A stretch of 64,000 nt of DNA from an uncultured Acidobacteriota bacterium (GTDB lineage Bacteria; Acidobacteriota; UBA6911; RPQK01; JAPXNP01), in assembly GCA_963777605.1 (NCBI GenBank), contig CAVZRV010000007.1:320001-384000 (forward strand), read 5' to 3'. The notes below the pieces were generated by a model. That model was given only the letters and a program-made list of their open reading frames with translations, was not told the origin of the DNA and did no database searches. Positions within the stretch are counted from its first letter, which is position 1. Each line of letters begins with the position of its first letter. The position numbers were made by a program, and so were the translations under genes. Positions 44,534 to 57,955 of this stretch are shown piece by piece.

Positions 44534-45547
44534 TCACCACCACTGTGCCCGCACCTTTCCAACCAGCCTGCCCCGGTCCCCCGAGAGATTCATTCCGAAG
44601 ATCAGCAGGAACGCAACCAGGGCCGGCGCCCACTTCCAGTGCTGAGACAGAAGTGCCTGCAGGGAGGCAGCATCCCGAATCAGCAGCCCCAGACTGACCG
44701 CCGGCTCCTGAACTCCAACGCCGAGGAACGAGAGGCTGATTTCAGCGACCAGGAAGAGAGGCAGGAAAAACGTTGCCTGGACAACGAGGACACTGCGGCA
44801 GAACGGCAGAACGTGGCGCACGAGGATCCTGAAATCGGAGGCTCCGATCGACCGGGCCGCCAACACGTGTTCCCGTTCCCTGATGGCCAGTACCTGTCCT
44901 CGAACGACCCTCGACACGGTCGCCCACGAGATCACCACGAAAATGACCACCATCATCATCATGGCTTCCAATGGAGAGAGGTTCACAGGGTAAAGAACGC
45001 GCAGTCCCAGGATGAAGAAAAGCCCGGGAACGGCAAGGAAGAGATCACTGACCCGCATGATGATCCGGTCGGCCCAACCTGAATAGTAGCCGGAAAGAGC
45101 CCCGGCCAGGGTTCCGATCAACAGCGTAAAAATGATCGCGGTCAGTGAGGCCAGCAAGGAAAAGCGGACGCCGCTGAGGGTCCGCGAGAAGATGTCTCTC
45201 CCCAGAGAGTCAGACCCGAGCAGAAAGACCGGCTGGGCACAGTCAGCAGTTCCCCAGATCCGGAACGGAATCCAGGATCCCCCCAAAACCCCTTCCTGCC
45301 GGCACTCCGGGAACCATGTAAGGGGCACCCGAAGACGGCTGGAAGAAACGCCAGGCTCTCGCTCCAGGACGGCGAAGATCGGGAGCCTCGAGCCCCCAGC
45401 CCAGCCGAAGGTCAGACGGGAAGGAGGCTGGTTCGGCCACTCTCGAAACTGATAGTCGGGAGGTTGAGGAGCAAGCATCGGGAGCAGGAAGAGTCCCAGT
45501 AATCCAAGACCCAGCCCCAGACCTGTCCAGATAGCTCCCCGCGTCAT
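44534..45547 (-). CDS. peptide ABC transporter permease (OppC/DppC-like)
   Basis: LLGSDSLGRDIFSR, RVVRGQVL, AARSIGAS..RILVRHVLP; ATGA overlap with the upstream permease. Confidence 0.9.
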   Translation of the reverse strand: MTRGAIWTGLGLGLGLLGLFLLPMLAPQPPDYQFREWPNQPPSRLTFGWAGGSRLPIFAVLEREPGVSSSRLRVPLTWFPECRQEGVLGGSWIPFRIWGTADCAQPVFLLGSDSLGRDIFSRTLSGVRFSLLASLTAIIFTLLIGTLAGALSGYYSGWADRIIMRVSDLFLAVPGLFFILGLRVLYPVNLSPLEAMMMMVVIFVVISWATVSRVVRGQVLAIREREHVLAARSIGASDFRILVRHVLPFCRSVLVVQATFFLPLFLVAEISLSFLGVGVQEPAVSLGLLIRDAASLQALLSQHWKWAPALVAFLLIFGMNLSGDRGRLVGKVRAQWW

Positions 45548-46470
45548 GGTTCTCTGACCCTCGGGTCGTTCAGACAGAGCACGATGTCGGCGATCAAACC
45601 GGCGCACAAAACCGCGACCGCGGCCGTCAGAACGGCAAATAAAGCTACGTAAAGGTCCCGTGACTGAATGGCATCGACAGTCAGGGCACCGAGGCCTGGC
45701 CAGCCAAATACTTTCTCGGCTACAACAGCGCCGCTCATCAGGCCGGCAAGGGTGACCCCTGCCATGGAGATCAATGGATTCGCGGCATTCCTCAATGCCT
45801 GGAACAGGATCCGATGTCGCGGAATCCCACGGGCAGCCGCGGAAGCGATGTAAGGCTGAGACAGGACATCCACGAGCTCTAGCCGCAGGATTCGCAGGAA
45901 AACTGCTCCGGAAGGTATGGCCAGAGTCAAAGCCGGCAACCAGACCTGGTAGATGTGTTCGCTGTCAAGGAAAGGTGACCAGCCCGACCAAATCGAAATC
46001 CCGAAGAGGAGGACCGCCGAGAGTACCGACGGCAACGACAGGGCGACGAGGGAGAGCACCAGGATCACCCGATCGAGCAAACCGCCGATCAGGGCCGCTG
46101 AGACACAGGCCAGGGGAACCGACCAGGACAAGCTGAAAAGGAGTGCCACCCCGGCCAGGAACAGAGTGAATTTCAGGCGCTCGATCACGAGTTGGAAGGC
46201 CGGGCGGTGCTGGGCAAACGAGTAGCCGAAATTGCCCCGAACTACCTGAGATAGCCACGCCAGGTACTGAGCCGGAAGAGCCTTCCGAAGGCCGAAATCC
46301 TCCCGGAGTTTCTCAACGGTCGCCTTCGATATGGTCGGGTTCAGTTCCATTTCGGTCAAGAAGTCCCCGGGGACGGAGCTGAAGAAAACGAATACGAGGA
46401 CGGAAAGGAGGAAGAGGGCGGGAATTGCTTCGAGAAGACGTCGTAAGACGAAACGAAGGATCGATTTCAC
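45544..46470 (-). CDS. peptide ABC transporter permease (OppB/DppB-like)
   Basis: RFVLRRLL, QYLAWL...GNFGYS, EKVFGWPGLG. GTG start overlaps the TGA of the binding-protein C-terminus. Confidence 0.88.
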   Translation of the reverse strand: MKSILRFVLRRLLEAIPALFLLSVLVFVFFSSVPGDFLTEMELNPTISKATVEKLREDFGLRKALPAQYLAWLSQVVRGNFGYSFAQHRPAFQLVIERLKFTLFLAGVALLFSLSWSVPLACVSAALIGGLLDRVILVLSLVALSLPSVLSAVLLFGISIWSGWSPFLDSEHIYQVWLPALTLAIPSGAVFLRILRLELVDVLSQPYIASAAARGIPRHRILFQALRNAANPLISMAGVTLAGLMSGAVVAEKVFGWPGLGALTVDAIQSRDLYVALFAVLTAAVAVLCAGLIADIVLCLNDPRVREP

Positions 46471-48297
46471 GGCTCCGCCCTTGAGATCTTCCAGGACCGC
46501 GCCCACGCATAAGGAAACACCGATGCCACGTCGATGCTGCTCAGCCCCGGACTCCGCGCCAGCAGAATGTCTCGATGGACGAGCGGGATCAGGGGAACTT
46601 CCTCCGCCAGCAACCGCTGCACGCGGGAGAACAGCTCCACCTGGCGCCCTCGATCGACGGTAGCGCTGAGCTCTTCCATCACCTGGTCGATCTTCGAGTT
46701 CCCACTCGGGCGCCTCGCTCCGGTCCAGCCTCCAGACGTGCATGGCCCCGTCGGAGAGGAGCAGATCGCGCATCTGGAACGGTTCCAGCGGGAGGTCCAG
46801 GTTCATGATCGCTACGTCGAAGTCATGCGATCCCATAACCCGAGAAATCACCGAGCGGAGCTCCTCCTGGCGAACAGAGACCTCAATCCCGACTCGTGCA
46901 AGGTCCTGCCGGATCAGGCTGGCAATACGACCCTGGACGTCACCGGCCGAGGTCACCAGTTCGAACCGGACCGGGTTCCCCGCGGAGTCAACCAGCCTAA
47001 TGCCGCCTTCTATCCCGTGGAAAGAAAAACCTGCCTGGCGGAGAAGCTCATGTGCAACCTCAAGGCCGCTCTTCTCTGCCTCGGCAGGCAAATACCAACG
47101 GCTGTTGGCGGGGGAGATCAGCCGTTTCGCCTCGGTCGCCAGCCCAAGATAAACGTTGCGGACAATCGAAGATCGGCTCACGGCTGCGCTCAGCGCTCGA
47201 CGGAATCCCCGTTTCGAGAACCAGCTGTACCGAATCCTTGCATCCTCCTTCGTGGGCTGATTGAGGTTAAGACAGAAGAAGGTGACATTGCTGGAGGGTC
47301 CGAGTTCCCGGGTCACACAGACCTTGCGCTCTTCCAGTAACCGGAAGTCCTCAGGTCGAAGAAGCTGGTCGATAAGATCGAGCTGGCCCAGGTTCAGCCT
47401 CAAGACCTGGGCGTTACGGTCTTCGAGATAGAGCAACCTGACTTCATCGAGGTAGGGCAACTGGGCTCCGGACGAATCTGTCTTCCAGTAGTAGGGATTG
47501 CGCTTCAGAGTAGTGCCGATTCCCGGCTTGTGTTCGGCGACCATGAACGGACCGAGGCCCGCCATCTCGACAGGGTCGGTGCCGAGGGTCCACTTTTCCT
47601 CGATCGGTGAATCGCCTTCCTCTGATTCCAGCAGGTGCCGCGGAAGTACCGGGATGGTCGAGAGCACCGACTCAATCCCGGAAAAGGGTCGCGGCCAGCG
47701 CAACTCGATCTCTCCCGATGGGAGAACGGAAAATTTCAGCGGCTCGCCATAGATATAAGCCGAGTCTTTCAGCACGTTGGAGGACGCCGGGTCAAGAATA
47801 TTCTCCAGAGTGAACACCACGTCTTCAGGGCCGACCAAGACGCCGTCGGAAAAGCGCAGGCCCTGCCGCAGGGCTAACCGAGCACTGGTCCCGTCGGATC
47901 CAAATATGGCGTCGCAAACTCCAGGACCAACGGTTTGTGCGACGGGATCAAATTCCAGCAGGGTGCCGGTTGTCAGCATGACCAACAGCCGGGAACGGGA
48001 TTCTGAGGCGGCAAGATAGTTGAAGGTGTTGGGCTCACCGGCCAGCGCGTACCGCACGCTCCCACCGGGACGGCCCTGACAGGAGACTTCGAGCGCCCCT
48101 GCAGGAACCTCTCCCCGCCGGTCTGCTTCCGGAGGTCCTTCCGAACCGTTCCTTTCTCCGGAACATGCCCCCAGCAACAGAACCAGGATCAGCCAGCCCA
48201 GGACTGTTCCTGAAGGCCCCCACGGCAACCGAAGCTTTCGTGGCGGAGCCAGTGAATGTGTCATAGTCGCAAAAGCATCGCTACTCTTCCCAGGCAC
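46467..48297 (-). CDS. peptide ABC transporter substrate-binding lipoprotein (family 5), one-base frameshift near 46695
   Basis: Lipobox LLGAC, LRQGLRFSDG, GLGPF, RNPYYW...LPYLD. True C-terminus (VQRLLAEEVPLIPLV) is in ORF 46467..46682. Confidence 0.85.
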
Positions 48298-57171: not shown

Positions 57172-57732
57172 CTAAGGATTGAGCCAGGGCTTCAGCTCCT
57201 CTTCCAGCAATGCCTTGCTGTAGGCGGCTCCCTTTTTCAGGCCCCGGTTCTGAAGCCAGAACGTCGGTTCGGGAAGGTTGCTCTTCCACACCAGACCCGG
57301 CTTGTAGAAAACGAACATGTCCCAGGCTTCGAGCGTGGGAATTCCAAACTCTTCCGAATAGACCCGACTCCCGAACCTCCAGAGGTCCCAGAAGTGGACC
57401 GCCCGGCGATCGGGAAGATAAACCGACGCCCGCTGAGCCGTTGCCTGGCTGTCACTGTGCAGATAAGGCGCCCAGAGCAGGAACACCTGAATCGGGGCCG
57501 AGGGATACTTGATCAGAATTTCCTGAATTTCAGAACACGCCTGAAGACAGTGCCCTCAGGTCGGAGACATGACCGCAACCAGGCGAGGCTGATTCGAAGC
57601 TGCGTTGAAGGCATCCTTCAATCCCCGGGCGTCGAAAGCCAGCGGTGTGACCGGCAATTCCGCCAGATATTGTGCAGACAACACACTGAAAAGGCACGCC
57701 AGACTTACGAGAGAGATCAAGAACCTGCGCAT
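57172..57732 (-). CDS. exported thioredoxin-like probable selenoprotein (UxxC); in-frame TGA at 57556-57558
   Basis: MRRFLISLVSLACLFSVLSA...FNAASNQPRLVAVMSPT*GHCLQACSEIQ...VFLLW joins ORFs 57556..57933 and 57172..57486 in one frame; 186 aa. Confidence 0.82.
57529..57545 (-). promoter_or_regulatory. candidate bacterial SECIS element
   Basis: TTCAGG-CGTGT-TCTGAA hairpin starts 10 nt after the TGA; loop contains GT. Confidence 0.5.
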
Positions 57733-57775
57733 TATTTTAAACAAGGATACTGAATCTGGAAATTGCAGTTCAAGA

Positions 57776-57955
57776 TTCGTCGCCCCCTCGGAACTTCCAC
57801 GCGTGAAAGCGGTGGTGTACGACGCCGATCCCAACGCCTTCCTCGTCGTCAATCCAACCGAGGAGGTGCTTGGGGGCGGATTTGGGGATCTTCGTCCCAA
57901 GTGGAGAAAGAAGATGACGAAGAAGCCGGACAAAGACTCCGAGCGGTCCGAATGA
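57776..57955 (+). pseudogene. 3' remnant of a YitT-family gene (DUF2179-like C-terminus)
   Basis: FVAPSELPRVKAVVYDADPNAFLVVNPTEEVLGGGF resembles the DPxAF...EVxGxGF tail; no membrane domain upstream. Confidence 0.55.

Follow-up and report, generated by a model that had tools for sequence, protein, structure and literature searches.

An in-frame TGA, almost certainly read as selenocysteine, joins two annotated fragments into a predicted thioredoxin-fold protein of an apparently uncatalogued family in Acidobacteriota

Several described selenoprotein families combine a thioredoxin fold with a UxxC motif, among them Trx (PF00085), the Prx-like thiol:disulfide oxidoreductases (PF00578), the thiol-disulfide isomerase-like proteins (cd02966), and Redoxin (PF08534), as given in Table 1 of PMC13188914. 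In these families selenocysteine (Sec) takes the first position of CxxC, a SECIS element directly follows the UGA, and many homologues carry Cys. The motif T-U-x-x-C in a redoxin-like fold is found in NF053656 (TUGYCR motif thioredoxin fold (seleno)protein), and UxxC also occurs in the Prx/Trx-like N-terminal domain of Selenoprotein P (PF04592), which the GOS "Prx-like 2" family is said to resemble (PMC2398784). Proteins of the TlpA/ResA/DsbE group (1lu4, 2f9s, 3gl3, and 5um7) have a single thioredoxin domain with a strand-helix insert, an N-terminal export or anchor segment, and a CxxC that opens the first helix, and the isomerases PDI, DsbC, and DsbG have a fixed CGHC-type motif together with extra or dimerisation domains. 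A metal-linked group is formed by the MerP/HMA binders and the selenoproteins NF041115, NF045683, and NF049942.

The locus described here lies in a window of 64,000 nucleotides, the whole stretch of DNA that was analysed, and its predicted product shares with the UxxC thioredoxin-fold selenoproteins the place of Sec, the SECIS-like hairpin right after the UGA, the many Cys homologues, and the fold. It nevertheless fell below the cut-offs of their models (best PF00085 E value, 0.051 for the protein and 0.0005 among 36 homologues) and has a signature of its own, S-P-T-U-x-x-C, W-x-P, D-x-R-x-x-H-F-W-D, A-W-D, and W-x-x-x-x-P-x-P-x-x-W. NF053656 matched 1 of 36 homologues at an E value of 0.027 without reaching its cut-off of 100 bits, and a genome search with that model misses the window gene. 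Weak matches to PF04592 were seen for 2 of 82 members of the wide family (best E value, 0.044), and neither SelP_N (PF04592) nor NF045500 matched the window gene. The single domain of the TlpA/ResA/DsbE group, its insert, and the motif at the first helix are shared in the structural model, along with a probable export or anchor segment, yet identity to those proteins is only 7 to 16%, most copies in the family have Sec, and the cis-proline is uncertain; the family is also longer than the TlpA-like proteins of the host by about 23 residues, which lie in its C-terminal half. Distant members take the place after merT or are fused to MerT, HMA, or DF domains, as in the metal-linked group, whereas the window protein has a thioredoxin rather than an HMA fold, no HMA match, and no such neighbours or domains.

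Against Pfam and NCBIfam (June 2026), the domain stayed below every cut-off in the window protein, in 36 close homologues, in 82 wide-family members (Pfam), in 45 representatives, and in eight correctly framed Sec forms (L116, in the wrong frame, was left out of this last set). Table 1 of PMC13188914, which covers 119 families, includes many UxxC thioredoxin-like families, none with an SPTU-type motif, and the accessible part of that source nowhere mentions Acidobacter. The strings SPTU, HFWD, and AWDVY were absent from four GOS supplementary files (PMC2398784), and SPTU was not found by a full-text literature search, in four deep-Sep supplements (PMC12013277), in the accessible main text of Haft and Gwadz (bioRxiv 10.1101/2022.07.06.499078), or in a portion of the BSepDB supplement (PMC13326102) whose rows are a species list. 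Among the literature listings searched, no paper dealt with the family or with a thioredoxin that takes the place of merP. The family thus appears to be large, uncatalogued, and of a common chemical kind, and some of its members may already sit within a broad "Trx-like" or "redoxin" bin.

An earlier note on this DNA had proposed that two minus-strand reading frames in the same frame are parted by a single TGA, and translation agreed: read through, the frame has 186 codons and a TAG stop, and codon 59 is its sole in-frame TGA (Table 1). Under translation table 11 the gene instead breaks in two: the upstream piece ends at 57556, and the downstream piece has 104 aa. Such 104-aa pieces are present among public gene calls, as the note had expected of separately annotated halves; one in the public protein collection is P0194, whose cluster is that of P0024, a protein with 89% identity over the downstream half. 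Taken with the comparative data below, the sequence makes it almost certain that positions 57172 to 57732 are one gene whose TGA is read as Sec.

Table 1. Features of the putative selenoprotein gene and its surroundings (window coordinates)
Feature	Position	Strand	Evidence
Predicted selenoprotein gene, Sec59, 186 aa, stop TAG	57172..57732	-	Single open frame; full-length Cys homologues of 176-199 aa; AlphaFold model pLDDT 93.8
Putative Sec codon 59, in-frame TGA	57556..57558	-	Aligned with invariant Cys; TGA in 66/104 loci, Cys in 38/104, TAA/TAG in 0
Predicted U-G-H-C active-site motif at start of helix 60-75, preceded by conserved S-P-T	57547..57558	-	Alignment and model
Putative SECIS hairpin, six pairs, five-base loop, G at +21 then U	57529..57545	-	99.3% paired cells in TGA loci vs 41.7% in Cys loci; register equal to that of host selD hairpin
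Conserved A-W-D motif, residues 136-138, before strand 139-143; may be at the usual cis-proline place	57319..57327	-	A 74, W 72, D 74 of 82
Downstream piece, 104 aa, separate protein per gene callers	57172..57486	-	Table 11 and public gene calls
Hydrophobic N-terminus, residues 1-20, probable signal peptide or membrane anchor	57673..57732	-	Hydropathy here and in 35 homologues; helix 2-20 in model
Weak sigma-70-like site, 9/12, ends 2 nt before ATG	57734..57762	-	1 found vs 0.3 expected

The hydrophobic N-terminus suggests that the selenoprotein would be exported; its 11-residue mean hydropathy is 2.67, and values of 2.1 to 3.75 were obtained for all 35 full-length Cys homologues. The sigma-70-like site ahead of the gene may be chance. 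The gene stands alone, its 3' end facing a converging rlmD-like methyltransferase gene, and upstream of it lie a gene for a 91-aa membrane protein on the opposite strand, a homoserine dehydrogenase gene, and a SCO1/SenC gene. Between the selenoprotein gene and the next gene, the plus strand (57779-57874) carries a C-terminal DUF2179 remnant (profile positions 24 to 55; E value, 1.4e-6), which looks like the leftover of a deleted gene. Elsewhere in the window (45544-48297, minus strand), an ABC peptide substrate-binding-like protein is joined in one long frame to a permease-like C-terminal part; judged by eye, the join resembles a stretch in the wrong frame, and a frameshift is possible.

A word-based protein search returned 45 proteins, 35 of them near full length and aligned, the other 10 being pieces of 103 to 119 aa. 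Cys was present at positions 59 and 62 in every one of the 35, in agreement with the earlier proposal that the TGA sits at the first Cys of a thioredoxin CxxC, for which the note had suggested a check of the residue aligned in homologues. The site codon was then compared in 104 related loci, that is, the fetched loci minus identical 180-nt contexts and minus three frame-broken rows (L040, L143, and L144); six domain matches in the fetched loci had no assignable motif. TGA was found in 66 loci, TGC or TGT in 38, and TAA or TAG in none, with the caveat that kin are not independent and that near-identical loci of single species may remain in these counts. The expected retention of the TGA among relatives, with both flanks conserved, was thus seen. 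A pseudogene or two small genes, with the TGA as a true stop or a sequencing error, would fit a hairpin that is thermodynamically unremarkable when taken alone; that reading is very improbable, since 66 distinct loci keep TGA and none has TAA or TAG, the sequence is conserved on both sides, and the hairpin goes with TGA and is absent with Cys, all of which contradicts it. Decoding of the TGA as Trp was also rejected, because the aligned residue is Cys and the sole tRNA with a TCA anticodon in the host genome is tRNA-Sec (ARAGORN). At one related locus (L144:3139-3165, identical to L040, in G014), the TGA and an intact hairpin are present, but an additional T in a run directly after the codon shifts the frame, which is either an assembly error or a real break.

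The hairpin TTCAGG-CGTGT-TCTGAA, which the note had placed 10 nt after the TGA, was recovered there at 57545-57529. Bacterial SECIS criteria, as given in PMC13188914, are a loop of 3 to 9 nt, a stem of 4 to 16 bp, a G in the first two loop positions, and a distance of 16 to 37 nt from the UGA; here the loop has 5 nt with G second and then U, the stem has 6 bp, and the spacing is 16 nt. The energy of the 31-nt piece was -6.0 kcal/mol (z, -1.0), compared with a SECIS threshold of -7.5 kcal/mol or below and a consensus energy of -7.66, and the minimum-energy folds of pieces of 44, 59, and 79 nt were other structures. A six-pair stem in this register with at least five Watson-Crick pairs and a G at +21 follows only 109 of the 210,290 TGA triplets of the host genome, and for this reason the hairpin is more than chance. 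As a candidate SECIS element it is weak alone, and its support comes from conservation and covariation, not from folding energy.

That support was drawn from loci divided by profile score into close (at least 130 bits) and distant (the remainder). Of the 38 close TGA loci, 36 had every pair of the stem, +14 to +19 with +30 to +25, whereas none of 31 close Cys loci did; among distant loci the corresponding counts were 20/28 and 0/7. The register had been read off the first 24 TGA loci, and among 14 close TGA loci added after it was set the stem was complete in 13. G at +21 was present in all 38 close TGA loci versus 11 of 31 Cys loci, and the codon for Leu+4 was CTT in 32/32 TGA loci versus 7/31 Cys loci. 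In the first locus set, 99.3% of cells were paired, three pairs were changed on both sides, none of 500 shuffles scored as high, and slid controls were all lower; in eight Cys loci, 41.7% of cells were paired. Compensatory pairs (AU/GC) stood at 12:11, and RNAalifold recovered the same stem unaided. Moreover, the hairpin of the host selD gene has the same register and a G at +21. In a distant Sec clade (L142, L127, L130, L132, L123, and L128), GGC replaces GGG two codons into the loop and the stem sequence differs, so the hairpin there may shift by one base in register.

The genes for Sec synthesis and insertion, selA, selB, selC, and selD, for which a check had been proposed, are all present in the host genome (96.7% complete; 5.7% contamination): profile matches exceeded the cut-off for selA (528 bits), selB (354), and selD (363), and tRNA-Sec was found. 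Host selD has one TGA of its own. Four further likely selenoproteins, each with a hairpin after the TGA, were seen on the plus strand of the host genome at C30:49692, C7:756510, C35:154856, and C35:158846; two are TlpA-like with F-P-T-U-G-x-C, one has W-A-S-W-U-A-G-C, and one is PrdB-like with P-A-U-P-V-C. The loose genome-wide scan for motif plus hairpin gave 464 matches, mostly chance, and was used only for the selD hairpin and for spotting candidates. Among the Acidobacteriota genomes searched, 40 of 41 and 47 of 49 had a selA match that exceeded or approached the cut-off, and Sec use looks nearly universal in the sampled genomes of the phylum; consequently the comparison has no Sec-negative control group, and Cys-only genomes are not Sec negative. 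One genome (G009; 750 contigs, 91% complete) has TGA copies of the family and tRNA-Sec without a selA match.

The family was matched in 39 of 41 genomes of the host family and order, of which 33 have a copy whose match contains one TGA and 6 have only copies without. In the phylum sample it was matched in 53 of 301 genomes (a tally that includes G062, a genome flagged as unpublished and counted here alone), and the seven listed genomes of the same class outside the host order gave no match. All 30 related loci that have titles are from Acidobacteriota. A full profile search gave 1,945 clusters at 50% identity with E values up to 0.001, of which 923 had E values up to 1e-10. On a quick tree of 101 rows with the site masked, Sec and Cys labels switched at least 16 times, with 7 switches forced by starred branches and the direction not readable. 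At one locus (L020:4940-6102; also L078), a Sec copy is directly followed on the same strand by a Cys copy. The host genome has exactly two members, each with TGA at the site: the window copy and a second one at C6:125087-125623 (plus strand; L014:6085-6627). The latter is 48% identical to the window copy, reads S-P-T-U-P-H-C, has a seven-pair hairpin in the same register, and lies upstream of a sulfatase-like gene on the opposite strand. Plasmid matches were sought for three family members, and none were found. Many cluster representatives of about 300 to 330 aa, P0068 and P0072 among them, have some 120 further residues that form an additional domain at the N-terminus; it starts with a W-x-G motif and, in the representatives tested, was named by neither Pfam nor NCBIfam.

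The thioredoxin-like fold claimed at the outset was upheld by an AlphaFold model (pLDDT, 93.8), by structure matches, and by Foldseek. In the model an N-terminal helix (residues 2 to 20) precedes a thioredoxin domain with strands 50-55, 82-87, 111-115, 139-143, and 158-161, and UxxC opens helix 60-75. The best structure matches were 1lu4 (Z, 13.2; rmsd, 2.8; 123 residues aligned) and ResA 2f9s (Z, 12.7; rmsd, 3.0; 127 aligned), and the same TlpA/ResA/DsbE group headed the Foldseek results. The top structure matches were tied with other thioredoxin-fold groups, and among the matches listed identity was at most 20% to every solved structure; the fold thus leaves the direction of the reaction unfixed. 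A profile of the family matched TlpA-like proteins of the host with a probability of 94%, PDB sequence searches gave weak PDI or thioredoxin matches around the CxxC (best E values, 0.0018 and 0.039), and in the ESM Atlas clusters without a name scored 0.97 while named thioredoxin-like leads were all below 0.9. The note had remarked that GHC matches the disulfide-isomerase-type CGHC, but the motif does not point to an isomerase: PDI models gave an E value of 0.15, TIGR01126 scored 12.4 bits against a cut-off of 107.2, the best matches were single-domain TlpA/ResA/DsbE proteins, and the middle residues vary. They are GH, PH, or PN in the close clade, and in the wide family the first of them is G in 26 and P in 25 of 82 members. 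The two Cys positions are kept in 80/82 and 81/82. Given the variable middle residues, the single domain, and the sub-cut-off PDI models, the disulfide-isomerase reading was rejected.

The conserved polar and aromatic residues R50, W87, D94, R110, W137, D138, and W149 could form a small-molecule site, and GPx, Bcp, and deiodinase folds were among the structure matches (Z, 10 to 11). Both points would suit a peroxidase or sulfenic-acid reductase that guards the envelope by peroxiredoxin- or GPx-like chemistry, as would a further peculiarity of the active site. Thioredoxin-fold proteins usually have a cis-proline that is said to prevent metal binding, and peroxiredoxins carry another residue in its place (PMC2757866, citing Su et al. 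2007). In the family the usual cis-proline may be missing, with A-W-D in its place; against this site, hhalign puts the TlpA proline near P132 instead (Pro in 34 of 82). A plain disulfide reductase that lacked the cis-proline would be unusual. We nevertheless consider the peroxidase improbable: those families carry TxxU or UxxT (PMC13188914, Table 1) where this one has UxxC, their folds rank below TlpA/DsbE, and the window protein has no AhpC-TSA or Redoxin Pfam match. In the wide family the Redoxin model matched 5 of 82 members, with a best E value of 0.0039, below the cut-off.

Gene neighbourhoods differed between the window clade and distant loci. In the window clade the neighbours were rlmD-like (12 of 31 loci) or SCO1 (5 loci), and no metal gene was found within 3 kb in any of 69 loci, 24 of which have at least 4 kb of DNA; such housekeeping neighbours name no client. 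Of 35 distant loci, 11 (7 with Sec and 4 with Cys) had a same-strand merT-like gene that adjoined or was fused to the family gene; it stood upstream or was fused in 10 of them and lay downstream in 1. A merR or csoR gene usually came first, as in the order merR, DF-family gene, merT, and family gene with TGA seen at L120, L127, and L142. These 11 loci, which include two pairs of the same genus, are spread over several branches of the quick tree; 7 had no HMA/MerP domain found within 3 kb and 3 have a fused HMA. With Pfam models only, MerR, MerT, MerB, HMA, zf_CopZ, or CsoR was found beside 10 of 34 distant loci, in a test of 63 of 128 neighbouring ORFs picked by eye. Small metal-gene profiles gave 16 of 35 distant loci versus 2 of 1,023 blocks of the host genome, the former count being inflated by self-matches because these very loci had contributed to the profiles. 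The small profiles also placed MerT, HMA, or DF domains on 18 of 147 cluster representatives, and on 16 representatives MerT, HMA, or DF-family domains were confirmed by NCBIfam or Pfam (45 and 20 proteins sent). The link to metal operons is a property of distant branches, not of the window copy.

These neighbourhoods, the domain-bearing representatives, and the spread of merT-linked loci over several branches raise the possibility that UxxC binds a soft metal (Hg, Cu, or Ag) as a periplasmic receptor in the MerP slot that passes the metal to MerT-type transporters, the window copy then being a general metal chaperone or scavenger. Hg or Cu could be bound through U-x-x-C because a conserved Trp may have replaced the cis-proline said to block metal binding (PMC2757866), and the SCO1/SenC gene 1.8 kb from the window gene, syntenic in 5 loci, would fit a role with metals. 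We regard this reading as doubtful: none of the 69 window-clade loci has such a neighbour, MerT was not found in the host genome, the count of 16 of 35 is inflated as described, and a reductase serving the cysteines of MerT and HMA proteins predicts identical neighbourhoods. In its fullest form, to which we give the same tentative standing, the family would be a Sec-armed periplasmic soft-metal receptor that replaces MerP beside MerT-like transporters, and the window clade a branch made into a core envelope gene by a whole Acidobacteriota order, often with two or three Sec and Cys copies.

We favour, with some reserve for the chain as a whole, an exported thioredoxin-fold selenoprotein that would act as a TlpA/ResA/DsbE-like selenol/thiol oxidoreductase of the envelope, from recoding through export to recycling by DsbD. 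Its first step is very nearly beyond doubt on the sequence comparisons: the hairpin that starts 10 nt after the UGA is predicted to bind SelB, which delivers Sec-tRNA to this codon and so gives a 186-aa product with U59-G-H-C62. The N-terminal peptide would then target the protein to the periplasm. There the N-terminal residue of UxxC, as the selenolate, may attack a disulfide or oxidised thiol of a partner protein, Cys62 may resolve the mixed bond, and a DsbD-type protein of the host may restore the reduced form. The sole DsbD-domain gene of the host lies within C29:412511-421721, about 7 kb from selB, a proximity that may be chance; DsbB was not found in the host genome. The selenoprotein would thus work as an envelope reductase with a client of its own; for members in distant branches, the paired cysteines of MerT- and HMA-type metal carriers are the probable client.

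The bacterial selenoproteome thereby gains a family that current Pfam and NCBIfam models miss, one that is near universal in a single Acidobacteriota order and extends over the 1,945 clusters above, and that is undercounted because gene callers split its Sec forms. Repeated switches between Sec and Cys with gain or loss of the hairpin, together with Sec and Cys copies in one genome, offer a clean test of the benefit of selenium in the envelope. Finally, the merT-like cassettes to which distant members are linked provide a testable function at a point where selenium meets mercury.
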